Source: a virus. From it: 64,000 nt of DNA. A program made the translations under genes and the position numbers. This document shows, piece after piece, positions 22,394-47,745 of the stretch. The DNA lies in IMG/VR virus record IMGVR_UViG_3300036772_000425, positions 266,924 through 330,923 of that record. One strand, given 5' to 3'. Position 1 is the first letter of the stretch; every line of letters starts with the position of its first letter. The notes beneath the pieces were generated by a model. It was given only the letters and a program-made list of their open reading frames with translations, had not been told where the DNA came from and did not search any database.

Positions 22394-25393
22394 TCAGGGC
22401 TGCTGCTGGTTCAGGTTGTTCGTCACGACGAAGTCCAGTGACACGAACTCGATCGTCTTCGTGGGCATCACGAAGATCTTCCCGCGGATGGTGTTGTTCT
22501 CGATGTCCTGCTGCGTCGTCGTCGAGCTGTCGATCACGACCTTAAACCGATCGAGACCGGCGAGCGCCTGGATCCTCTGCAGACCGGGCGTGACTGCTGC
22601 CGTGAACTTCGCGAGGGTGACGTCCCTGTTGGGCTCGAAGAGGATGGTGTTGGAGATGTCGCGAACCTGACGCCTGATCTCGATCAGCAACCGGCGGACG
22701 TTGACCCTGTCGAGGGCCGATGCAGCCTGCTGCAGCGTCTTCTGTCCCCAGACCACGACGCCGCCGGTGGGGTTGGTACCACCCTGCGAATTGCCCGGGA
22801 AGGCGACGAGCGGGTTGATGTTGACGTCGTACAGGACGTCCATGTTGTTCTTGGACAGCTTGACCCGGGCCTCCAGGGTCGATTGCAGGGCTCCTCGGGT
22901 GAAACCGGCCGGAGCGAACCACGGATGACCCACCTTGTCATTCAAGGCCATGGCTCCCAGGACAACGACTGACGGTGGGACGACCACGTTAGTCTGCGTC
23001 GTCGGATCCGGGATCACAACGTCCGGGAAGTAAGCTGCTCCGAAGCTGCTGTCCAGGGCCCGGCTTGCGAAGTTCTGGGCCGTCAGGGTGACGCTCGGCA
23101 GCTGGTCATCGCTGGTCACCAGTTCACCGTTGTTGTCAAGCTGCTCTACGTCCATGATGTAGAGAGCATCGAACCTATCCTGCACCGCTGAGATGGCGGC
23201 ATCGGTGACCACTGGGTTCCGAGCGCCAGGAATGGCAAGGAGCTGCAGGTCGGTGTTCGTGGTCTCACCCATGATCTGCAGGGCCTTGGCGTAGGCCTGG
23301 ACCGTGGGTCCGTTGTTGGATCCACGGTTCGGATCGGACATGTCTCCCTCGACGGCTGCGTTGGTGAGCTGCGATTCATCCATGTCAAAGATGTTGATCC
23401 CATCCGAACCGCCCTGGACGAAGAAGCTCCACTTCAGGAAACGCCTGTTGGCCTGGATGAAGTCGTCTGGGATGACGGCCCGCGTTTTGTTGGCATCGTT
23501 TGCCACGATGCCGCCGGCGCGGACATAGGTTGCGTTGACCCACTGGTTGGAGTCAGCCACACCGGTAGAGCCGGTGATGACCTGGACGTTCATCAGGCTG
23601 AAGAAATCTCGGTTGAAGAGATCGTTGTCGATCGCTCCGTTCGCCACCGTGCTCGGGGTCCCGGTGTTGTCAGTGGACAGGAAGTCCTGCACATCAACCC
23701 GGTGGTTCGGGAAGTACTGCACGGTCGCGTTCATCGAAAGGTTGGGCAGAACGGACAGGTTCGGTGTGGCCAAGCTGGCCACGTGTTCGTACTGAACGCC
23801 CCAGTACAGGAGCGGGTTGACCTGCAACGTGGCTCCTGAACCCTGCGTCAGGTTCTGCCGGAACGGAACGGGCGGTTGCTTGACACGGGTCCATGCTGAT
23901 GAATCGATGACGGTGGCTGCCGTGGGCGCCACCAACGGAGCTGTGCCCGCCGTCATCAGGTGGTTCGCTCCACGCATGCCGACCGGCATGGCGCTCGGGT
24001 CTGCCTCGCCGGTGTCCACGCTGGAATCCATCTCGACCCGGATCAGGTTCGACTGGTTCAGGTAGTTGCCGTCCACCGCGATCTTCTGGGCTGTCAGGCC
24101 CCTGTCGAAGTCGAAGTACGAGTGTTGGTCGCCCACCACCTTGGCGATGTACCGATCATCGCTTGGGTTCAGGCTGAGCCCACGCCACTGTTCCAGGTAG
24201 ACGGGACTTGCGTCGTTGTCAGTCCAAGATCGAACGACCAGGTCGAATGACGGGTATGGGTCGTTGGAATCTGTCGAGATCGCAATGTTCTCGATGGCCA
24301 ACTTGTACAGCGTTGACACACCGGAACCGTCATCGAGGGCGTGCACCCTGAACAGGTTCTGAGCGCGGCCGCCGAAAGGTTGGCTGACAACCCAGGGTGA
24401 AAGAGCGTGGGTGAAACGATCCTGGAAATCCTCGAAATCCGGTGCCGTTGAGGTGCCGGAATCCCGAGCCTGAGACCCGGTGAGCAGGAATGCATCGTGC
24501 TCAAGGACCTGACCCACCATGGAACTGGTGAGGACTCCGATGCCCGTCACTACAGCGGTGGCTGGGTGGATGTCCCATGATGCGTAGACGAAGTGACCGG
24601 CCTGCTGAAGCTTGGTCTGATCGGTGTTGAGAACGTTTGCGAAGTAGTTCGGCGACGTCATGTCGAACGATGCCGTGATCACGTTCGGGTACAGCGGATC
24701 GGTGCCCTTGTGACCGTTGAGAAGCATGACAAAGTCCTGCTTGGCAACGCTCGATTGGAGAAGAACCGTTGAACCGACGGAAGCTCCGTTCCCGTTGCTG
24801 GCGACAGCGTTCGACCCGGGTCGAACGCTGGGAGCGACGGACGAGGACAGGGAGATGATGACGCCTGATGGAGCCATCACAACCCCCCGGAGGATGGGCT
24901 GTGCCGCAGAGCCTGACTGCAGGCCCGCCGAGCTGAAGACGGTTGACCCAGCTGACTCTGACATGAGGCAACCGAGGAAGTACGTCCGACCGAGCGGGCC
25001 GCCCAAGTTCGCGTACGGGTTGGAGCTCAGGATGCCTTCGTTGTCGGGATCCGGCTGCTTCTCACCCACCACGAAACCAGAGGTTCCGACGATGCCGGTC
25101 TGGGTGTTGCGCTGCTTCCCGTCTCCGGCACCCAGGATCCTGAGGTAGGTCAGGGCCTGAGCGTTCCGCAACCATTCACTGACCGCCAGCGGCCCGAACT
25201 TCTGGCCGTCGGACGGCCCGAACTTGGCGTTGAAGTCAGACTGCAATCCGACCGTGATCGGAACGTAAGCCGGACCCTTCACCGCGGTGCCGATGACACC
25301 GGCTGGGACGCCCGTCGGTTGCTGAGCAACCGGGCCCGAGAGATCGATCTCCTGAGCTGTGACCCCCGCTGCACCGAACTTCAACTGTGCCAT
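22394..25393 (-). CDS. Tail sheath protein, copy 1 (gp18-like, 999 aa)
   Basis: C-terminus NRVNVRRLLIEIRRQ...IEFVSLDFVVTN parallels gp18 DRINVRRLFNMLK...INYITLNFVATA. N-terminus TGVPAGVIGTAVKGPAYVPITVG. Preceded by GATAGTTAGGAACGAGGCAGGACAGGC-ATG. Confidence 0.85.
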   Translation of the reverse strand: MAQLKFGAAGVTAQEIDLSGPVAQQPTGVPAGVIGTAVKGPAYVPITVGLQSDFNAKFGPSDGQKFGPLAVSEWLRNAQALTYLRILGAGDGKQRNTQTGIVGTSGFVVGEKQPDPDNEGILSSNPYANLGGPLGRTYFLGCLMSESAGSTVFSSAGLQSGSAAQPILRGVVMAPSGVIISLSSSVAPSVRPGSNAVASNGNGASVGSTVLLQSSVAKQDFVMLLNGHKGTDPLYPNVITASFDMTSPNYFANVLNTDQTKLQQAGHFVYASWDIHPATAVVTGIGVLTSSMVGQVLEHDAFLLTGSQARDSGTSTAPDFEDFQDRFTHALSPWVVSQPFGGRAQNLFRVHALDDGSGVSTLYKLAIENIAISTDSNDPYPSFDLVVRSWTDNDASPVYLEQWRGLSLNPSDDRYIAKVVGDQHSYFDFDRGLTAQKIAVDGNYLNQSNLIRVEMDSSVDTGEADPSAMPVGMRGANHLMTAGTAPLVAPTAATVIDSSAWTRVKQPPVPFRQNLTQGSGATLQVNPLLYWGVQYEHVASLATPNLSVLPNLSMNATVQYFPNHRVDVQDFLSTDNTGTPSTVANGAIDNDLFNRDFFSLMNVQVITGSTGVADSNQWVNATYVRAGGIVANDANKTRAVIPDDFIQANRRFLKWSFFVQGGSDGINIFDMDESQLTNAAVEGDMSDPNRGSNNGPTVQAYAKALQIMGETTNTDLQLLAIPGARNPVVTDAAISAVQDRFDALYIMDVEQLDNNGELVTSDDQLPSVTLTAQNFASRALDSSFGAAYFPDVVIPDPTTQTNVVVPPSVVVLGAMALNDKVGHPWFAPAGFTRGALQSTLEARVKLSKNNMDVLYDVNINPLVAFPGNSQGGTNPTGGVVVWGQKTLQQAASALDRVNVRRLLIEIRRQVRDISNTILFEPNRDVTLAKFTAAVTPGLQRIQALAGLDRFKVVIDSSTTTQQDIENNTIRGKIFVMPTKTIEFVSLDFVVTNNLNQQQP

Positions 25394-25658: not shown

Positions 25659-28600
25659 TCAGACGAAGGCGATGCCGCTGTTGGTGATGATGAAGTCAAC
25701 CGCGATGAATTCAATCACACGGGTGGGCACCACCACGATCCGGCCGTTCAGCTTGTTCAGGTCGATGTCGGCCTGCGTGTTGTTGGTCTCATTCATGATG
25801 ACCTGGAAGGATTCGATCCCGGCCTGTGCCTGGATCAGGCCCAACTGCAGGGCTGATTGCGAGACGAACTTGCCCCAAACCTCGGGCGTGTTCTGCTCGA
25901 ACTCCAGGCCCAAAGCGATGTTGATGACGATCCTCTTGACCTCCAGCAGCAACCGGCGGACGTTGACCCGATCGAGCGCGGAGCTCTTGATCTGCAGCGT
26001 CTTCTGTCCCCAGACCACGAATCCCTGCCTGGGGAAGGTGGCGATCGGATTGATCCGGCTGTCGTAGAGACGATCCCTGTCCGAGGAGTTCAAGCGGACC
26101 TCAACGTTGCTGACGAAGTCGAGAGCAGCCCGGTTGAACCCAGCCGGCGCGAACCACGGGTACCCCACCCGATCATTGAACCCAAGGGCTCCGAGCGCAG
26201 CGATGGACGCTGGCACCTTGATGCGGCGGCGGTTGGTGGAATCTTCGATGAAGACGTCCGGGAAGTACGTACCGACGTAGTTGTTGTCGATCGCTCGGGT
26301 GTCCAGGCCGACCGCTGTCTGGTTGACGTCGGGCTTCAGGGTCGCATCGTCGAAGAGGCGAACCTGGTTCTCATCGAATTTCTCAAGGTCCATCACGTAG
26401 TAGGCGAGCCCGTAGGCCCTGACCTTCTGTCCCGTGTAATCGCTGATGAAAGGTTCCCTGATACCCGGAAGGAGGAGAACGTTGTGGTTGACCGCCATCG
26501 GATCCGTCATGATGTTGACAGCCGCTACGTACGAGGCGACCGTGGAGTTCTGCTGCCCTGCACCCGACTGGTTCGCTGCGAATGCTGCTGGGATGAACCC
26601 GGGTGCCGCCTCGCCGACGAAGGAGCTCGCCTTGTCGTTCATCCGACGTGCATCGGGATCCAGCGTGTTGACGCCGTCCCAACCGCCCGCAAGGAAGGTG
26701 GTGAATTTTGCGTATGGGCTGAAACGGTTGAAGACAGAGGCGGATGCCTTACCGAGCAGGGTTGCAAACGAAATGCGAGGACCGATGACAGGATCCTGGA
26801 TCGTGTACTGGGTGGTGTCCACCTTTCCGTTGCGGATGTAGGCTGCCTCCCTCATGTGCGTGTCGACAGACGCCGTCAGGTCGGTCAAGGAACTGTTGCC
26901 GAGCGCAACCCGGGCCAACGTGAACTTGTTGTTGTTCAGCACGTCGGCACCCGACCCGGTGACCACCGTGTCCAGCTGCTGGATCCCCTGCAGCTGGGTC
27001 AACGATGAGAGCAGGGAGTTCGGGAACGTCTCCAGGTTCGGATCGAGCGGGATATCGTTCCTTTCGAACTTGACACCCCAGTAGTACAGCGGAACAGAAA
27101 GCTCCGTGATGCCCGGTTCGCCGAACCACGATGCCGCGGTCGGACGTTGGCCCTTGGTCACCTTGGAACGCATCGGCACGGGGGGCACGATTGCTCCGCT
27201 CAGTGCCTGAGCAGACCCGGTCACAACACCGGAGATCCTCACGAGCCCACCGGTCTGCGCGGAGTCCGTCAAGGAATCGTTCGTCTTCAGGATCACCGCT
27301 CCACGGAAACCGAACGGAAGCGCCTGCGGCGGCGTCAGGCCACGATCGACCTGGGAATTCATGACGATCCTGACAAGTGCCGAGTTGTTCTGGTACTTCC
27401 CCTGCGTCACGATCCGTCGCTCATCCGGATCGGTTGAATCAAAGTTGAAGTACACCTTCCGATCTCCGATCACCTTCGCAACGTAGTTCTGTGCGTTGGG
27501 ATCGAGCGAGCAGTTGTTGAACTGCTCCAGCACCAGCGGGCTGGTGTCCGTGTCAGACCAGGAACGAACCTGGACTGCGAAGGTCCCGTACTTGTTGGCA
27601 TCGTCCAGGGATGCCTTCAGGCTGACGATGGAGATCTTGTACAGGTTGTTTGCGTACGATCCATCGTCGAGGGCCTCAAACCTGAAGAGATCGTACTCGG
27701 TGGCACCGAATGGTTGGCTGATGAAGTTCGTGGTCGAGGGAGCCTTGAACCGGGTATCGAACGCTCCGAACGCCTTGCGGTACTGCAGGGTGGCATCGCC
27801 AGAGTTCAGGCTCACGTTGTTGGTACCCGAGACCACGGCGACGACTGAGTTCGCCACTGTCGCAATCTCATCATCGACAGCGAAGTCTGAGTACAGCAGG
27901 TGCTTCGTGGTCGCAAAGCGATCCGGATCAGAGTTCAGGACCTTGGCGAAGTAGTCAGTTGAGCTCGGATCCAACGAAGCCGTCAGGATGTGAACCCCTG
28001 ATTGACCGTCGTTGTTGTAGTAGCTGTCGCCCAACGATGTTGAGATGATCAGCTTGAATTTCCCGTTTGAATCAGTCGCACCTGCGTCCAACATGGTGTT
28101 GACGGCGCCCGCTGACATGTCACGGTTGTAGTCAGTGACCATCAGCTTCGACCCAGAGGCCATCAGAACAACACCCCTGATCAGGTTGACGATGGACGAT
28201 GCGAACGAATCGTTGTCCGTGAAGTCAGCCTGGCCGAACGCTTCGTTCGCCTGCTTGGTGTGCCGAGCCACGATGTACTGAACGCTGTGATCGTACCGAC
28301 CGAGCCTGTCCTGGGACGTACCGTCCAGGTGGTACCCTGCGTTGAGGACCCGACCCTGCACGCTGGCACGGGTGATGTCTGTTGCGCTGGCGTTGTTACC
28401 GGCTCCCAGGATCCTCATGAAGGTCAGGGCCGACCGGTTGTTGAGCCAGTTGTTGGCTGCGTAGGGCCCGAACCTTTTCGGATCAAGGTTGCCGAAGATG
28501 CTGACGAACTGATCCCAGTTCCCCACCGTGACCGGCACGAATGCTGGTCCTCGGTTGGAGGTGCCGATGACACCGGCCGGAACACCAACAGGGCCTTGCG

Positions 28601-28667
28601 GTGCTGGAGCTGACTGGTCAATCTCCCGATCGAAAAAGTTGGGAGACCTGAAAGACTGTGCGGGCAT
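25659..28667 (-). CDS. Tail sheath protein, copy 2 (gp18-like, 1002 aa)
   Basis: Paralogue of copy 1: N-terminus VGVPAGVIGTSNRGPAFVPVTVG, C-terminus DRVNVRRLLLEVKRI...IEFIAVDFIITN. ATG start with GAGGAG RBS. Confidence 0.85.
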   Translation of the reverse strand: MPAQSFRSPNFFDREIDQSAPAPQGPVGVPAGVIGTSNRGPAFVPVTVGNWDQFVSIFGNLDPKRFGPYAANNWLNNRSALTFMRILGAGNNASATDITRASVQGRVLNAGYHLDGTSQDRLGRYDHSVQYIVARHTKQANEAFGQADFTDNDSFASSIVNLIRGVVLMASGSKLMVTDYNRDMSAGAVNTMLDAGATDSNGKFKLIISTSLGDSYYNNDGQSGVHILTASLDPSSTDYFAKVLNSDPDRFATTKHLLYSDFAVDDEIATVANSVVAVVSGTNNVSLNSGDATLQYRKAFGAFDTRFKAPSTTNFISQPFGATEYDLFRFEALDDGSYANNLYKISIVSLKASLDDANKYGTFAVQVRSWSDTDTSPLVLEQFNNCSLDPNAQNYVAKVIGDRKVYFNFDSTDPDERRIVTQGKYQNNSALVRIVMNSQVDRGLTPPQALPFGFRGAVILKTNDSLTDSAQTGGLVRISGVVTGSAQALSGAIVPPVPMRSKVTKGQRPTAASWFGEPGITELSVPLYYWGVKFERNDIPLDPNLETFPNSLLSSLTQLQGIQQLDTVVTGSGADVLNNNKFTLARVALGNSSLTDLTASVDTHMREAAYIRNGKVDTTQYTIQDPVIGPRISFATLLGKASASVFNRFSPYAKFTTFLAGGWDGVNTLDPDARRMNDKASSFVGEAAPGFIPAAFAANQSGAGQQNSTVASYVAAVNIMTDPMAVNHNVLLLPGIREPFISDYTGQKVRAYGLAYYVMDLEKFDENQVRLFDDATLKPDVNQTAVGLDTRAIDNNYVGTYFPDVFIEDSTNRRRIKVPASIAALGALGFNDRVGYPWFAPAGFNRAALDFVSNVEVRLNSSDRDRLYDSRINPIATFPRQGFVVWGQKTLQIKSSALDRVNVRRLLLEVKRIVINIALGLEFEQNTPEVWGKFVSQSALQLGLIQAQAGIESFQVIMNETNNTQADIDLNKLNGRIVVVPTRVIEFIAVDFIITNSGIAFV

Positions 28668-39839: not shown

Positions 39840-40436
39840 TCAAGGTACAACCCGCCAGATCTCCCTGATCCACCGCTCGGCACCCGCCCTGGTCGGATGC
39901 ACCCCATCGACCAACGGGATCTTTGCGGCCTGCGTATCGAAGTAGGTGCACCGTGGCACCGCGGCGCGCCTGATCACGTCATTGATGGGCCAATCCCGCC
40001 CGTGAACCTGGGTGTTGCCCACCCAAACGCAGGGAACAGAACCCAACTGAGTCAGCAACGAACCGACGGGTGGTACGGTGCTGCTGTTGTAGTGATTCGT
40101 GCCCAAGAAGATGATGATCACGTCTGGGTTTGGATGCAGCTGCAGGGCGCGCCTAGCATGGCCCGCAGCCCAGTGCTGGACAGTTGTACCATTTTGGCAC
40201 TCCACGTCAACAGAATCGTGCGGGGCTCCTGCCTCATCGTTGATCGTCCGGACCAACCCGGGTAGGTCGTTCAGGATCCTGACAGCACATGCCTCACTGT
40301 CGCCCAAGATCAGGACATGTCTCGGTGAGACAGCCTGAACCTCCAGCGCTGCGTCGGGGAACTTCAACGGATCATGGTCAGCGCGTGGAACTGAACAACC
40401 CAGGAAGGCGCACAGCACCCAAGCCAGGGGTCGCAT
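39840..40436 (-). CDS. Secreted/lipoprotein-like SGNH (GDSL) hydrolase
   Basis: Start at MRPLAWVLCAFLGCSVP (hydrophobic signal peptide with FLGC lipobox-like cysteine). Block I ILGDSEA, block III FLGTNHYN, block V DGVHP. TGATG overlap with the methyltransferase stop. Confidence 0.65.
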   Translation of the reverse strand: MRPLAWVLCAFLGCSVPRADHDPLKFPDAALEVQAVSPRHVLILGDSEACAVRILNDLPGLVRTINDEAGAPHDSVDVECQNGTTVQHWAAGHARRALQLHPNPDVIIIFLGTNHYNSSTVPPVGSLLTQLGSVPCVWVGNTQVHGRDWPINDVIRRAAVPRCTYFDTQAAKIPLVDGVHPTRAGAERWIREIWRVVP

Positions 40437-41035
40437 CACTTCTTCCGAAGGATGATGGGTTCTCCCTGGATCGGCTTGATCAGCTCCCAACCTGGGTGCG
40501 ACACCAACCAATCATCGACCGCGGGTTTGACCCCGTGTTTTTCGGTGTCAACCGGCTTGGTGACAGAGGTCACGTCCTGGTACCCTTCCCTCTCAGAGTA
40601 CCAGAGGTCCCGCTCTGACCAACGTCCGTCGTAGTCATCGATGACAACCAACGTGTGCGGGTGGCACAGATCCTCAAGCGAGGACAGTTCGTTGGAGACG
40701 GTGTGGTAGTTGTGATCACCGTCCAGCATGATCACATCGAACTTCATACCGGTCTTGACCAGCTCGGGCAGCGCCTGCAAGCTGTTTCCTTGGATGCAGG
40801 CCACCTCCTGCCCAGCCTGCAGGTCAAGGTTGTTGAGGATCAGCCTGACCTGTTCCTGGACCAGCACGTCAACCCCCAGGACGACGAACCCGGCCCGGGT
40901 ACGGGCCAGGAACGCAACTAGCGGGATCAGTGTCGTGCCCCGATCGATGCCCACCTCCAGGACGGAGACAGATCGATCCTTGGGTAGGCCGTGAAGTTCA
41001 TGCTTGATCAGGGGCAAGTATCCCACGTAGCTCAT
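40436..41035 (-). CDS. Class I SAM-dependent methyltransferase (TylF/CmcI-like O-methyltransferase family)
   Basis: Start at MSYVGYLPL. VLEVGIDRGTT glycine-rich SAM motif. FDVIMLDGDHNYHTV resembles macrocin-O-MTase family proteins. Confidence 0.65.
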   Translation of the reverse strand: MSYVGYLPLIKHELHGLPKDRSVSVLEVGIDRGTTLIPLVAFLARTRAGFVVLGVDVLVQEQVRLILNNLDLQAGQEVACIQGNSLQALPELVKTGMKFDVIMLDGDHNYHTVSNELSSLEDLCHPHTLVVIDDYDGRWSERDLWYSEREGYQDVTSVTKPVDTEKHGVKPAVDDWLVSHPGWELIKPIQGEPIILRKK

Positions 41036-41278
41036 CCTAGAATTCTCCGTTATGTTGGTCGGTTCAGCCGCCGGCGAGCAGGACCTGGATCGTGGTCTCC
41101 ACCCGGGCACGAAGCTCGTCGGGCAATGCCGACATCAGGACATACGTCTCACCCCTGAGGCCCGATGCGGGCACCCCCTCGCTGATCGAGGTGTCATTTG
41201 GGATACCCAGACGAAGTGTCAGCGGTGCGCTGCCGCCGACGACAGAAATGATGGGCTGGTATGGATTGATTCTCTGCA

Positions 41279-41706: not shown

Positions 41707-42435
41707 TCAATCTAACGCCAGTTCTCTCTGTGATTTCTTCAGACGCTTTAGCGTTGAGTACGACACTCCGTGTTCCTTCATCAGGTCCACCAACGGTGTG
41801 TTGACGATCGCTTGTAATAGTTCTGAGCTCGGTTCGAACTTCGTGGAAGCTGAAATCTTCGATCGTGTCTCTGTTGAAGGTTGACGACGATGTGAACATG
41901 CATCAGAACATGTTGTCCGAACATGGTACCTCCTGTTCTGAGAGAACTCAACCTTGAAAGAGGTGCCGCAATGGCACGTTCGAACCTCGACAACCTCATC
42001 CTTCGCACCCAACCGACGCTCATGAGCGATGGGCCAGCATTTCCGGAGCTTGTCTCGGGTTTCAGGTCCTAGAACCCGACCGACGCAGTGGGTGTTACCC
42101 TTCAGAGCTTCGGAGAGTGTTTGACGGGCTGCATCTGTCATTCCTCTTCCGCACGGATCAATGTTGTAACCCTTGTTTGAGTTCATGGAATCCAGCTCGG
42201 AGATCCAGAACCTTTCTCGATCATCAATCGTTGAGTCTGAGCACTCTTCAATGATTTCGAAAATGAAGTTCTCAACACCGTGCTTTCGCATTGAACGATA
42301 AAGAGGATATTCCACTCTCGTGTCTTTCGACGCGTAAAGATGACCCGCCTTACGTTGAGCGAAGTTGTAGGTCTGCCCTACGTAAACTTTACCATTCACC
42401 TGATTGGTGATCTTGTAGATGTACCGCATGAACAA
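41707..42435 (-). mobile_element. GIY-YIG homing endonuclease (Seg/I-TevI-like), free-standing
   Basis: 242 aa. YIYKITNQVNGKVYVGQTYNFAQRKAGH...NKGYN is a GIY-YIG catalytic module. C-terminal DNA-binding region. Located directly next to the tmRNA gene. Confidence 0.8.
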
Positions 42436-42469
42436 CCTTACTACATGTTCACATGATATATCGTGCGAG

Positions 42470-42828
42470 TGGAGCAGCCGGGAATTGAACCCGGGTCCGC
42501 AGCGCGTCTTCCGATCACTTCTTCACAAGCTTGGCCCCTTTTGCTGCTCGGCCCAGGGACAGGCCTAGAGGACGAATTTCACGTCTTTATCCCCAATGAC
42601 GGTGCCTGTACGCCGGTCACCTGACGTTTTCCGACCCAGGACGCTCGGTCGCGCGCTCAGCATTCTGTTCCGAGGTCGCTGAGGACCCGATCCGTCACGC
42701 CGCGAGGCGGAGCGGAAGTGCGCCGTTGTCGTTGGCAGCTATACGTCACTTGGGTTTTTAGACCGGACCCTCGTGCACCGGTGCTTGCAGTGAAAGGCTT
42801 CAGAACCACGTCGAAACCTGTCTGCCCC
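42470..42828 (-). ncRNA. ssrA: Phage-encoded tmRNA (one-piece SsrA)
   Basis: Minus-strand RNA 5'-GGGGCAGACAGGUUUCGACGUGG... (compare E. coli GGGGCUGAUUCUGGAUUCGACGGG) ...3' GGACCCGGGUUCAAUUCCCGGCUGCUCCA. Acceptor stem GGGGCAG/CUGCUCC with a G3:U70 pair (alanine identity) and a T-arm CCGGG-UUCAAUU-CCCGG. Internal tag reading frame GUAUAGCU-GCC AAC GAC AAC GGC GCA CUU CCG CUC CGC CUC GCG GCG UGA encodes (A)ANDNGALPLRLAA. About 359 nt. Confidence 0.8.
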
Positions 42829-42907
42829 GAAATCTTCCGGGAGAACTAGCATTAGGTTGTCAATGACCGGGTGACCATCCTTAAGTACCACACCGTTGGG
42901 CGTTGTT

Positions 42908-43294
42908 TCACAGGCTCCGCATTGGGAAGTGCGGATGCCGCGGCGTGCGCAGGGGCCGCGGCTTCGGTTGCAGCGGAGGAATCGGCGGATCGTTGAGATC
43001 GATCTCACCGCACGGCGAGCTCGTCAGGGCCGCGATCCTTTCATCCTCACGTTGGGCGAAGGAATTGAACCTCTCCCGCTCCGCACCGTGTGCCGCTGCA
43101 TCGAGCTCTGACAGCAGCAGGGCCTGCAACCGACCGTTGACCCGAACGAGGGCGGGGCGGCCCGGGATGGCGTTACCGTCAAGGGATCGTTGCAGGAGTC
43201 CGAAGATGGTCAGGGCCTCAGCTGCAGAAAGTTCGAGCTTCACTTGACACCGACCTTCCTGATCTTCCGAGCTGGAAGGATCAACTTTCGCCAT
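42908..43294 (-). CDS. Hypothetical protein (128 aa)
   Basis: Minus-strand ORF upstream of the tmRNA. Overlaps 43240..43692 by about 55 nt, so start positions are uncertain. Confidence 0.3.
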   Translation of the reverse strand: MAKVDPSSSEDQEGRCQVKLELSAAEALTIFGLLQRSLDGNAIPGRPALVRVNGRLQALLLSELDAAAHGAERERFNSFAQREDERIAALTSSPCGEIDLNDPPIPPLQPKPRPLRTPRHPHFPMRSL

Positions 43295-43694: not shown

Positions 43695-44000
43695 TCAGTT
43701 GCCCCGTGACTCGAAGTGCTTCTTCAGGACCCGGTACAGGGTCCGTGCCTGGTAGCCCGTCAGCTCAAGGTCGGCCAGGCCCGCATGGTCGGGATCGAGA
43801 CCGCGGTCGCGACCGAAGAGGTCGATGAAGACGCGGGTCCGATGGCTGCTGGTGTTGGTCGACGCGGCGACGTCGAACCCGGCACGACGACCGAGGGTTT
43901 CAGTCCTGATGTTGCCTCGGGAATCGCGCCGGGTCTTGATGTTCGCGTTACGGTTGAAGCTCTTCATGTTCAGTTTCCTCCGGGTCGATGCGTTCTGCAT
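43695..44000 (-). CDS. Hypothetical basic protein (about 90-101 aa)
   Basis: Arg/Lys-rich N-terminus (MKSFNRNANIKTRRDSRGNIR). Possible nucleic-acid-binding protein. Confidence 0.35.
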   Translation of the reverse strand: MQNASTRRKLNMKSFNRNANIKTRRDSRGNIRTETLGRRAGFDVAASTNTSSHRTRVFIDLFGRDRGLDPDHAGLADLELTGYQARTLYRVLKKHFESRGN

Positions 44001-45816: not shown

Positions 45817-47745
45817 TCAGATGATGTTCATGTCGAGGCAGGTGACCGTACCGTAGAAGTCGGAGCGAACCATCTTCTTGCCGTACCGGGTCATCACACC
45901 CTTTCGAGGCGTGAAATCCTCAGGAGCGAAGATCGTCGGGGTGACGATCAGGGGAACGTACGGGGAGTACACGTAGCCCGTCTCGAGGTAGCTGCCGCCC
46001 TTGTAGCCGACCAGGATCTTGTTCCTTGCGAAGTAAGGATCCTTGTAGACCGTGAACCGGTTGCTCAGGGTACCGATCGCCTCGGCGCCGACCGTGAAGG
46101 GCGAACCCACCTGGCCCTCGCCGTCGATCGAGAACTTCGGCTTGTAGAGGACAGAGCTCTCCAGGATCGTGGCAACGTCGGGGGACGTGACCATGAAGTT
46201 GGCGGAGCCACGCAGCGTCTTCCGGTGGATGGTGTTGGCGCAATCGATGATGGTCTCGATCAGCGTCTCGTACCACTCACGGACCGTGCCGGTGAACTGC
46301 GGACCGATGCTGAGCGAGGTCGCCAGGTTGATGGGCGAACCTGTCAACTTGTTGACGAACTTGCCAGGAGCACGGCTCCAGTACATGTTGGCACCGTTGG
46401 CCTGGGTGACCAGGTCGTTCAGGATCTCGCGGTCGATCTCCAGGGCGATCTGCTCAGACAGGATGCCGGTCAGCTCGACCTCAGCGTCCATCGAGTGGTA
46501 CGCATTGAGGTCCTGTGCCATTTCAGGCGACCACCGAGCACGCAGCTTCCGGGTTGTCGCGGTGATCGAGATGGACTCGATCTTGATGTCGATCTCGGGG
46601 ATCGCCGGTGAAGGCGTGGCACCGAAGTCGGACTCGAAGGATGGGATCGTCAGGGTGGCACCGGTGCTGTCGCCCTGGACCAATCCGTCTGCGATCGCCA
46701 TCGACACCTTCTGAACTGCGGTGCCCAGGGCCGGAGCCGTGCCGCCGTCGGTCAGACGAAGGACGAACTGGACGTGGTCGCCGTTCATCGGTGACGGGGT
46801 GAAGGTACCGCCCGTCAGGAGGTTGCCGCCGGCCGTGTAGGTCGGAGCAACGAAGAAGCCACGCTTGTTGAGCCGGCGCAGGTTCAGGATGCCCTTACCG
46901 CTCTGGTAGGAGGTGCCCCACTCGACCGCGCCGTTCGCGGTTGCAACACCGTACAGCGAGATCTGCTCGACCGACAGGAAGTCACCGTTCGGGATGCCCG
47001 CCTGGATCGAAGCGACCGGGATGTGGACGAAGACCACGTCCAGGAGGCTGTTCTGCAGGTCGACATCGATCTGAGGATCGAAGCCCAGCAGCCGGGCGTT
47101 GGTGCCCGAGAAGTCCGTGGTGGATGCGACCGTTCCGGACACGAAGGTTCCGTTGGGACCGCTGAAGGCACCGACCGCGAGGTTCGATCCGGAGATCGTC
47201 TCGTTGTTCTGGTGCACCCGGGTGAACCCGACGTTGACCAGGTCGTACATGCCGCCCGTCGCCAAGGATCCGCTCTGGATTCCCTTGCCCGTCGGGTTGT
47301 TGTAGATTGACTGGCCGCGCTGGTAGGTTTCAGCCGTGGCGGAGTTCGAGAGACCGACACCTGCGTTACCGCCGACATTGCTGCCGTAGGTGTAATCCAG
47401 GTAGAAGATCAGACCAGACGGGAGGCTCATCGGTTGGATCGAGACAAGCTCGTTCGCAACCAAACCACCGAACACCCTGCGGACGATCGGGAAGGCGATG
47501 TTCGAGAAACCCTGGATCTGACCGCTCGAGCCGACGTTGCCGCCGCCAGTGGACAGAGCGTTGGATTCCTTGAGGACCTGCGCTGCCTGGTTCTCCAGGA
47601 GCTGGGCCATGGTCTCTCGCTTGAAACCATCGAGTCCACGAAGCAAGCCGGTGCGGCTCCACTTCTCAACCAGTCGAGCGCGTTCCGCGCCGACATGCCG
47701 ATCTTTGATGCCCGCGGCGAGCTGTTCCATCGTGAAGAACTTCAT
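45817..47745 (-). CDS. Major capsid protein (T4 gp23-like)
   Basis: 642 aa. TTRKLRARWSPEMAQDLNAYHSMDAEVELTGILSEQIALEIDREIL is collinear with gp23 KSRQLKAAYSIELAQDLRAVHGMDADAELSGILATEIMLEINREVV. C-terminal NKILVGYKGGSYLETGYVYSPYVPL parallels YFTVGYKGPNEMDAGIYYAPYVAL. N-terminal propeptide-like segment. Preceded by CTACTTAGGAAGCAGCAGGAGACACA-ATG. Confidence 0.9.
   Translation of the reverse strand: MKFFTMEQLAAGIKDRHVGAERARLVEKWSRTGLLRGLDGFKRETMAQLLENQAAQVLKESNALSTGGGNVGSSGQIQGFSNIAFPIVRRVFGGLVANELVSIQPMSLPSGLIFYLDYTYGSNVGGNAGVGLSNSATAETYQRGQSIYNNPTGKGIQSGSLATGGMYDLVNVGFTRVHQNNETISGSNLAVGAFSGPNGTFVSGTVASTTDFSGTNARLLGFDPQIDVDLQNSLLDVVFVHIPVASIQAGIPNGDFLSVEQISLYGVATANGAVEWGTSYQSGKGILNLRRLNKRGFFVAPTYTAGGNLLTGGTFTPSPMNGDHVQFVLRLTDGGTAPALGTAVQKVSMAIADGLVQGDSTGATLTIPSFESDFGATPSPAIPEIDIKIESISITATTRKLRARWSPEMAQDLNAYHSMDAEVELTGILSEQIALEIDREILNDLVTQANGANMYWSRAPGKFVNKLTGSPINLATSLSIGPQFTGTVREWYETLIETIIDCANTIHRKTLRGSANFMVTSPDVATILESSVLYKPKFSIDGEGQVGSPFTVGAEAIGTLSNRFTVYKDPYFARNKILVGYKGGSYLETGYVYSPYVPLIVTPTIFAPEDFTPRKGVMTRYGKKMVRSDFYGTVTCLDMNII

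Follow-up and report, generated by a model that had tools for sequence, protein, structure and literature searches.

A Complete One-Piece tmRNA Gene in an Uncultured T4-Like Phage and Its Relatives

The tmRNA Gene and Its Detection

The DNA considered here, a stretch of 64,000 nucleotides hereafter called the window, belongs to the IMG/VR virus record IMGVR_UViG_3300036772_000425 and carries, on its minus strand, a complete, one-piece, phage-borne transfer-messenger RNA (tmRNA, gene ssrA) with a proteolysis-type tag. A preliminary description of the window, made from its letters, had proposed a full tmRNA on this strand; our analysis supports it, ARAGORN and Rfam being in agreement. ARAGORN finds a sole gene in the 64 kb, a tmRNA at 42469-42828 (minus strand) with the tag ANDNGALPLRLAA. 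The Rfam tmRNA family, RF00023, matches at 42467-42828 on the same strand, with 87.8 bits versus a gathering score of 47 (E = 1e-32), and the match spans the complete model (positions 1-374 of 374). A covariance-model search was the check that the preliminary description had suggested, and the score obtained lies far above the gathering score. When the whole window was scanned with 4,227 Rfam families, RF00023 was the single match, and neither a riboswitch nor any other Rfam family was found beside the tmRNA. The posterior probabilities of the RF00023 alignment are low over the central part of the molecule because the domain following the tag is made of five compact modules, which are described below.

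The gene order is that of a non-permuted, one-piece molecule: ARAGORN gives it the label tmRNA, not tmRNA*, and the 5' and 3' halves of the tRNA-like domain (TLD) flank the internal open reading frame (ORF). The mature RNA occupies 42470-42828 (minus strand; ARAGORN, RF00023 and computed coordinates) and measures 359 nt through its discriminator A, without an encoded CCA. In the numbering used here, the window coordinate of nucleotide n of the tmRNA is 42829 - n. The surrounding non-coding stretch had been estimated at about 390 bp and is longer than that, about 478 bp, from the stop codon of the upstream ORF (42908-42910) to the start ATG of a GIY-YIG gene (42429).

Anatomy of the RNA

All features of the RNA lie on the minus strand. 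At its two ends, GGGGCAG (42822-42828, nt 1-7), which bears the G3 of the G3:U70 pair, and CUGCUCC (42471-42477, nt 352-358) form an acceptor stem of 7 bp; the minus-strand read-out thus agrees with the stem and the identity pair that had been announced. The stem is also present in the global fold, the unconstrained minimum free energy (MFE) and centroid structures both retaining the acceptor stem and the T-arm. The T-arm, CCGGG/UUCAAUU/CCCGG (42478-42494, nt 335-351), has a 5-bp stem and a 7-nt loop of the UUCRANY type; it reads exactly as previously described and was included in the covariation test presented below. It is preceded by an invariant GGAC (42495-42498, nt 331-334; family alignment). 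The D-loop analogue ACAGGUUUCGAC (42810-42821, nt 8-19) contains GG and an invariant UCGAC (alignment columns T14-C19), and fits the Rfam consensus GGaUUCGAC. The discriminator A (42470, nt 359) is followed by the bases CUC. The 3' CCA is thus not encoded in the window and must be added post-transcriptionally. Membership of the tmRNA family does not require an encoded CCA. Within the family of 31 related sequences described in the next section, CCA is encoded after the discriminator in eight, among them L004, L005, L040, L123, L126, L137, and L143 (L numbers designate our related loci). Judging from these sequences, reliance on a CCA-adding enzyme varies inside one tmRNA family.

Inward from the TLD, helix 2 (P2) pairs its 3' strand, 42498-42530, with 42783-42810 (nt 19-46 with nt 299-331); its positions are 85-99.5% paired across the family, and 15 of its 20 pairs show double-sided changes. 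The first pseudoknot, PK1 (42752-42782, nt 47-77), is composed of the stems S1 (ACCGG/CCGGU) and S2 (GGG/CCC), both of which are paired in 98-99% of the alignment cells and show double-sided changes. Helix 5, formed by UCCG (42713-42716) and CGGA (42691-42694), encloses the end of the tag and its stop codon (42691-42716 overall) and was judged by eye. Its equivalents in relatives differ in sequence (CCUCUC/GAGAGG, GACGA/UCGUC, CCAG/CUGG, from reading the alignment), and its register slides.

The post-tag domain consists of five compact modules of 20-35 nt each (PK2, a hairpin or PK3, PKb, PKc, and PKd). PK2 (42656-42688, nt 141-173) is built around an invariant AACAGAA; its S1 (GGGUC/GACCU) is conserved without covariation, and its S2 (CUCAGC/GCUGAG) covaries, with double-sided changes at all 6 pairs. 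The second module is in the window a hairpin, CGACC/GGUCG (42632-42651, nt 178-197), located where some relatives have a third pseudoknot, according to a manual comparison of the central regions, where the subgroups align differently. PKb (42601-42627, nt 202-228) has the stems ACGUC/GGCGU and GGUG/CACC, paired in 96.6% and 93.3% of the family with compensatory changes; the window's own S2 is one column out of register in the family alignment. PKc (42568-42601, nt 228-261) combines S1 (CGUC..GACG, 97% paired) with S2 (GGGGA/UCCUC, ahead of a conserved CUAG); this S2 is the weakest helix of the molecule in the family (78% paired), and the window forms 5 of its 5 pairs. PKd, the last pseudoknot (42535-42565, nt 264-294), has the stems GGCC/GGCC and UCCC/GGGG, which are 89-100% paired, with replacements such as CCC/GGG by CUCU/AGAG. 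It is known that the number of pseudoknots varies among tmRNAs, the cyanobacterial one-piece molecules splitting pk4 into two small tandem knots and the alphaproteobacterial pk4 being a helix, and that tmRNA pseudoknots are functionally interchangeable (PMC1168896, PMC2481249). We therefore treat the five-module domain as a variant inside this known plasticity.

A Family of Related tmRNAs under Selection

A search with the capsid protein retrieved hundreds of IMG/VR contigs, and in 10 of the best 80 capsid-related loci ARAGORN detected a tmRNA at a distance of 2-8 kb on the downstream side of the capsid gene. The family was then built by a pattern scan of conserved blocks (with a gap of N45-75) and an nhmmer profile, which gave 30 distinct tmRNA sequences besides that of the window, hence an alignment of 31 sequences. 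In about 30 independent contigs of uncultured phages from different samples, the gene occupies one and the same syntenic position, the conserved order being the major capsid protein (MCP) gene, g101 (43695-44000 in the window), the tmRNA, d62/d69/d71, a methyltransferase gene (40436-41110), and a GDSL hydrolase gene. Among the 13 capsid-related loci that cover both flanks, eight contain the tmRNA. The tmRNA, which a sister subclade lacks, is thus an accessory yet long-standing resident of part of the clade.

We examined the secondary structure with column counts on MAFFT alignments. The structure tested was derived by hand and comprises helix 2, both stems of PK1, PK2, and the last pseudoknot, as well as the T-arm. 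Over the whole molecule (31 sequences, 52 pairs), 92.5% of 1,528 cells are paired, versus 32-46% in slid controls, whose partners were displaced by 1-3 columns; covariation is scored at 0.562 versus 0.07-0.12 in these controls, and 40 of the 52 pairs show double-sided change. None of 500 shuffles equalled the observed values. Since the family members are related to one another and also served in part to derive the structure, the slid controls, which preserve this relatedness, are the more meaningful comparison. In a gap-free mini-alignment of the acceptor stem and T-arm, 98.6% of the cells are paired and acceptor positions 5-7 covary freely; the 7-bp acceptor stem is found in 31/31 sequences, and G3:U70 is kept in 23 of 24 distinct ones. 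For the central region, a test restricted to 18 window-like sequences supports PKb, PKc, and PKd, with 91.9% of cells paired versus 30-42% slid, and a covariation of 0.374 versus at most 0.10. RNAalifold independently finds most of the tested helices, and the UCGAC and GGAC columns are invariant throughout the 31 sequences. This strong covariation, together with the conservation of the tag at the peptide level presented below, argues that selection maintains the gene as a functional tmRNA in at least 30 related phages.

The family contains a variant of the elbow of the TLD. Eight relatives (L121/L127, L122, L130, L147, L148, L149, L151, L153) have the T-loop GGCAGUA (or GGCGGUA, GGCAGCG) for UUCGAUU, and these same eight have AG for GG in the D-loop; L126 and L012/L015 are listed alongside them. 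The combinations counted in the family are 21 GG/UUC, 8 AG/GGC, and 2 others, a near-perfect correlation between the two loops. The eight AG/GGC relatives are missed by ARAGORN and accepted by Rfam at 55-76 bits, and this elbow is present in both structural subgroups of the family. Read from the alignment, the AG/GGC pair looks like a co-varying alternative elbow.

The Tag and Its Reading Frame

The tag ORF (42695-42736, nt 93-134; ARAGORN and read-out) starts with the resume codon GCC at nt 93, directly after GUAUAGCU, runs through GCC AAC GAC AAC to GCG GCG and the stop codon UGA, and encodes the 13-codon tag ANDNGALPLRLAA; the reading frame and the LAA-ending tag that had been proposed are found exactly there. 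In E. coli, the nearly universal A86 determines the frame, which opens precisely four nucleotides past it (PMC2481249). The equivalent of A86 here is the A at 42740 (nt 89), at -4 from the resume codon, and an A occupies this place in 29 of the 31 family members, window included.

The N-terminus ANDN is present in all 31 sequences, and all the nucleotide changes in its codons are synonymous third-position changes (GCC/GCG/GCT, AAC/AAT, and GAC/GAT in a 20:11 ratio). The terminal Ala-Ala codons are retained in 29-30 of the 31 sequences, with synonymous variation; 25 tags end in LAA, and 23 have 13 residues. More generally, the ANDNG N-terminus and the LAA C-terminus are better conserved than the middle of the tag. 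Since the conservation operates at the level of the peptide, we consider that the tag frame is translated, which speaks against a mere decoy for SmpB, as discussed below.

One relative departs from this organization. In the tmRNA of L148 (11978-12351), UUA replaces the UGA, and the tag would extend to 34 residues (ANDNGVAPFALAALGTGV...). This may reflect decay, an error of sequencing, or a tag that has changed.

Upstream Signals and Expression

Upstream of the gene, on the minus strand, a TTGACA box at 42858-42863 (-35 to -30 from the mature 5' G) is a candidate -35 element and lies within a conserved YYTTGACAA box, kept 26-39 nt upstream of the tmRNA in most high-GC relatives. The motif CTAGTTCTC is read at 42841-42849. 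The preliminary description had pointed to both motifs; they stand, TTGACA being in addition conserved in the relatives, but TTGACA has no -10 partner. We infer a dedicated promoter region upstream of the tmRNA. Farther upstream, at 42879-42893 (minus strand), the motif GTGTGGTACTTAAGG occurs once in the window and recurs upstream of the tmRNA in relatives, many of which have the variants GTGTGGTAGATATAG and TGGTACTTAAAG; in L012 nothing separates it from the start of the mature RNA. The motif may serve as another promoter or as a signal for processing or recombination.

No match to TATAAATA, the consensus of T4 late promoters, occurs in the window. A 12-mer around TTGACA was considered as a repeated phage promoter and rejected, the other near-matches lying inside ORFs. 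At the other end of the gene, the 40-nt spacer that separates the tmRNA from the GIY-YIG gene has no terminator, which suggests possible read-through into that gene.

An Insertion Slot Directly 3' of the tmRNA

The gene that follows the tmRNA (41707-42429, minus strand) encodes a GIY-YIG/NUMOD3 homing endonuclease (PF01541, 2.8e-9; PF07460, 3.6e-6) and starts 40 nt past the discriminator. Its third-position GC is 0.53, versus 0.7-0.85 in its neighbours. Across the relatives, the slot located 20-40 nt past the 3' end of the tmRNA has a variable content. A GIY-YIG endonuclease occupies it in the window, L136, and L148, and six relatives have nothing there. In L133, L125, L137, and L040, it contains a protein of about 250 amino acids (aa), Zn-finger/'VWVESDG.WHF' and nuclease-like; this protein and the GIY-YIG protein of the window have in common a Cys-rich module of 71 aa (42% identity, E = 7e-13) and are otherwise dissimilar, a pattern suggestive of domains shuffled at one homing site. 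In twelve relatives, the slot contains a conserved ORF of about 90 aa (RR.NG.RLEG...). Finally, in L121 (about 680-1280) and L132, a gene for a 200-aa ClpP-family protease (PF00574, E = 5e-27) lies about 30 nt after the tmRNA. The phages carrying this ClpP gene also have the T4-type S77 prohead protease. In these relatives, tagging and proteolysis may be functionally linked.

Taken together, these gene contents indicate that the region 3' of the tmRNA is an insertion hot spot, repeatedly invaded by homing endonucleases. In phage T4, free-standing GIY-YIG homing endonucleases of the Seg type lie beside tRNA genes. The window resembles this situation in that a free-standing GIY-YIG gene adjoins a conserved stable-RNA gene and is present in only some relatives; it differs in that the neighbour is a tmRNA and not a tRNA cluster, and in that the homing role is here a predicted one.

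The Phage Genome around the Gene

The window lies within a contig of 168,718 bp (Logan assembly of SRR11832861), so that the phage measures at least 169 kb; its GC content is about 58-60%. PHROG and Pfam scans of the window identified a Gp23-type major head protein, a portal, an S77 prohead protease, a T4-type large terminase, a gp19 tail tube, baseplate proteins, gp32, and SbcCD-like nucleases. Phage structural genes extend on both sides of the tmRNA for tens of kb, the tmRNA being inside the T4-type structural module. Among the 63 ORFs of the window, neither an integrase family nor a CCA-adding enzyme family was detected. A 10-kb extension of the sequence contains replication genes (RecA/UvsX-like, DnaB-like helicase, ribonucleotide reductase, ThyX) and no tRNA gene.

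Nucleotide comparisons with 50,697 deposited phages (blastn of the locus with word size 11, and megablast of 20 kb) gave no match, and the nearest deposited capsid, from an uncultured phage of 484 kb, is about 45% identical at the amino acid level. The window thus belongs to an uncultured high-GC phage lineage with a T4-type core and no cultured representative.

Two structural genes of the window are unusual. Two adjacent tail-sheath paralogs of about 1000 aa (22394-25393 and 25659-28667, both on the minus strand) match their family only over the C-terminal 200-350 residues or so, which points to a sheath gene that has been duplicated and greatly enlarged. The Gp23-type major head protein (45817-47745, minus strand, 642 aa) has a PHROG match only over residues 361-624 approximately, the N-terminal 360 or so being unmatched.

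Comparison with Known tmRNAs and the Question of the Host

The preliminary description had called tmRNA genes rare in phages, and this holds: a survey found them in 402 of 18,146 phage genomes (2.3%), with 133 unique sequences (PMC9004378). Complete phage tmRNAs had been catalogued in 2014 in Bxz1-type mycobacteriophages and Bacillus phage G (PMC4131195), and in huge phages tmRNA has been reported together with SmpB (PMC7162821). A phage tmRNA as such is therefore already known; what is new here is a clade-wide family with structural features of its own. The distinctive features of the window gene are its extra small pseudoknots and the homing-endonuclease hot spot directly 3' of it.

The window RNA follows the E. 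coli (RF00023) one-piece plan, namely the TLD 5' half, PK1, the tag ORF, helix 5, the pseudoknot domain, and the TLD 3' half. It has in common with the E. coli molecule G3:U70, the UUCGAC/GGAC motifs, a UUCRANY T-loop, an A at -4 from a GCN resume codon, and a tag that starts with AND and ends with LAA; the lengths are also similar (359 nt plus CCA versus 363). It differs from the E. coli gene in being phage-encoded, in not encoding its CCA, which the E. coli gene does, and in having five small modules of 20-35 nt where E. coli has three pseudoknots of about 50-60 nt. In cyanobacterial one-piece tmRNAs, too, the number of pseudoknots is raised, smaller tandem knots standing in the place of large ones (PMC1168896); unlike these tmRNAs, the window RNA has its entire post-tag domain made of small modules, one of which alternates between hairpin and pseudoknot among relatives.

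Among phages, the Bxz1 group, phage G, and the huge phages of Al-Shayeb et al. (2020) likewise have a full ssrA in a large genome of virulent type, read as translation support (PMC4131195, PMC7162821). The present lineage is distinguished from the cultured and huge tmRNA phages by the lack of nucleotide similarity (50,697 records), its Gp23-type capsid, its high GC, and its uncultured status, and from the huge phages, which often carry SmpB, by the fact that none was found in the 63 window ORFs, the 10-kb extension, or the related loci. Of the 133 unique phage tmRNAs, 53 are two-piece, including those of T4-like pelagimyophages and of Melnitz (PMC9004378). Like the pelagimyophages and the OM43 phage Melnitz, the window phage is a T4-like myovirus in whose clade an accessory ssrA is common but not universal; unlike the Melnitz tmRNA, a permuted one with a glutamine riboswitch linked to it (PMC9004378), its gene is one-piece and without a riboswitch.

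On the other hand, the ANDN start of the tag had been taken as a hint of a beta- or gammaproteobacterial host, and this suggestion is not supported. In E. coli the tag reads ANDENYALAA (PMC2481249), ANDN is found in alphaproteobacterial and permuted viral tags, and four residues are too few to designate a host. ANDN opens the tag of the alphaproteobacterium Caulobacter, AANDNFAEEFAVAA. Separately, four unrelated IMG/VR viral contigs (L092, L108, L111, L115) have permuted tmRNAs with the tags ANDNDMALAA and ANDNDAPVMALAA. We also scanned 185,579 species-representative bacterial genomes with the pattern GGTGCACGAG-N20-45-GCNAAYGAYAAYGG. The 13 loci obtained (L154-L166) all correspond to one protein-coding gene (...VLVHEDG...ANDNGGGQVVISGH..., FabD-like) in metagenome-assembled genomes of Acetobacteraceae and other Alphaproteobacteria, and no tmRNA was found at them by ARAGORN or by the family hidden Markov model (HMM). 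A one-piece tmRNA in Alphaproteobacteria was thus rejected, the matching loci being protein-coding and negative with ARAGORN and the family HMM. Since the scan returned only coding-sequence false positives, it provides no lead to a host or donor.

Function and Alternative Explanations

The recognition elements of the canonical trans-translation pathway are all present and conserved in the window tmRNA, and from established biology its action would proceed as follows. The gene would be transcribed from its own upstream region, with the conserved TTGACA box; the 5' end would be matured, the 3' end trimmed, and CCA added by host enzymes. The host alanyl-tRNA synthetase would charge the RNA with alanine via G3:U70, and host SmpB and EF-Tu would bring it to ribosomes that have stalled on mRNAs broken or lacking a stop codon. 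Such a ribosome would resume on GCC, add (A)ANDNGALPLRLAA, and terminate at UGA, thereby being released, and the tagged peptide would be directed by its C-terminal LAA to host proteases of the ClpXP type. The tmRNA most likely relies on host factors, and the host SmpB is its probable partner because no phage SmpB was found in the sequences searched. For the phage, the likely benefit would be an added capacity for ribosome rescue while it infects, as damage to mRNAs and intense translation of late genes make stalling more frequent; such an extra capacity has also been proposed for other phage tmRNAs (PMC7162821, PMC9004378). We estimate at about 82% the probability that this is a genuine, functional ssrA gene in a lytic-type T4-like myovirus of at least 169 kb.

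Several points weigh against this conclusion. The gene is dispensable, as its stop codon is lost in L148 and the tmRNA is missing from five related loci: L018, L021, L024, L025, and L030 hold g101 and d71 or the methyltransferase gene without a tmRNA between them, these five belonging to a somewhat more distant set (MCP 71-72% identical). No SmpB family was detected in the 63 window ORFs nor in the 10-kb extension, about 95 kb of the contig lying beyond the sequence searched, and tblastn over 1.82 Mb of related loci with an E. coli SmpB as query gave no SmpB match either, which is a weak test. The maturation of the window tmRNA depends on CCA addition by enzymes outside the identified gene set. 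A sigma-70 consensus scan returned 0 promoters, with no acceptable -10 partner for TTGACA, and the terminator scan found no intrinsic terminator after the tmRNA. The global MFE z-score of 0.13 is uninformative for a pseudoknotted RNA. Finally, we infer every mechanistic step from established trans-translation biology.

The RNA could also work as a tmRNA and be selected for a role other than general ribosome rescue. Such a role has been proposed for other phage tmRNAs (PMC9004378), and it would agree with the ClpP-family gene (PF00574, 5e-27) directly downstream of the tmRNA in L121 and L132, with the ends of the tag (ANDNG and LAA) being more conserved than its middle, and with a family signature matched in no bacterial genome in the pattern scan. 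We nevertheless find it unlikely: trans-translation tags anything that is stalled and the sequence reveals no selectivity, the window tmRNA has no adjacent ClpP or adaptor gene, and the gene is located among late structural genes and not in an early host-takeover region. The content of the 3' slot raises another question, namely whether the tmRNA is mainly a passenger, a landing pad for selfish DNA that offers endonucleases a reliable target with little benefit to the phage. The GIY-YIG genes of the window, L136, and L148, the module-sharing nuclease-like protein of L133, L125, L137, and L040, the other small ORFs or the emptiness of the slot elsewhere, the atypical third-position GC of the window's GIY-YIG gene, and the patchy presence of the tmRNA (8/13 covered loci) are all in line with it. 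However, structure and tag are under strong purifying selection across divergent phages (MCP 70-90% identity), and several relatives keep the tmRNA with an empty slot, hence a persistence without endonuclease, which leaves this explanation with very little probability.

Still less credible is an inhibitor or decoy that would titrate host SmpB or ribosomes and stop trans-translation in the host, a role that has been suggested for the TLD-only RNA of mycobacteriophage DS6A. TLD-only RNA does strongly inhibit tmRNA (PMC4131195), and no phage SmpB was found in the window ORFs or related loci, but a decoy has no need of the mRNA-like region, frame-setting A, stop, and LAA that are here conserved with synonymous changes. 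As to the phage origin of the gene, ssrA 3' ends are common integration sites and ssrA fragments occur in prophages (PMC9004378), so that one may think of a host ssrA at a prophage boundary, as an attachment-site remnant, or of an assembly chimera. The gene is, on the contrary, full length and not a 3' fragment; it is bordered by phage structural genes for tens of kb on both sides, with no integrase family detected among the 63 ORFs; the same synteny is found in about 30 independent contigs from different samples; and the signature is in no bacterial genome according to the pattern scan. Full length, phage flanks, and recurrent synteny effectively refute the attP remnant and the chimera, and the recurrent synteny, combined with a patchy but clade-wide presence, rules out such an artefact.

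Beyond a functional ssrA gene used for ribosome rescue, one may speculate on a phage-specific tmRNA lineage that is not a recent copy from a host, with its own tagging-degradation system tuned to infection and an RNA gene that is also the homing site of modular endonucleases. The elements in favour of such a lineage are the absence of a counterpart in the 185,579 bacterial genomes at the level of the tested pattern, the five-module domain, the AG/GGCAGUA elbow sublineages, and the ClpP gene in some members. We regard this extended scenario, which is built on side observations in relatives, as doubtful, and put it forward tentatively.

Significance

The finding leaves the current picture of trans-translation and of phage biology unchanged. 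It provides a well-supported, clade-wide case of a virus with a ribosome-rescue RNA, in an uncultured high-GC T4-like clade. The match to a FabD-like gene shows that searches for tmRNAs by DNA pattern call for caution. With its roughly 30 natural variants, the family constitutes a comparative data set on the number of pseudoknots, the register of helix 5, and the variants of the elbow, and the endonuclease hot spot is a natural system for homing beside stable-RNA genes. Finally, the conserved tag and TLD could link these phages to their hosts once the tmRNA, SmpB, and ClpX systems of candidate hosts are known.

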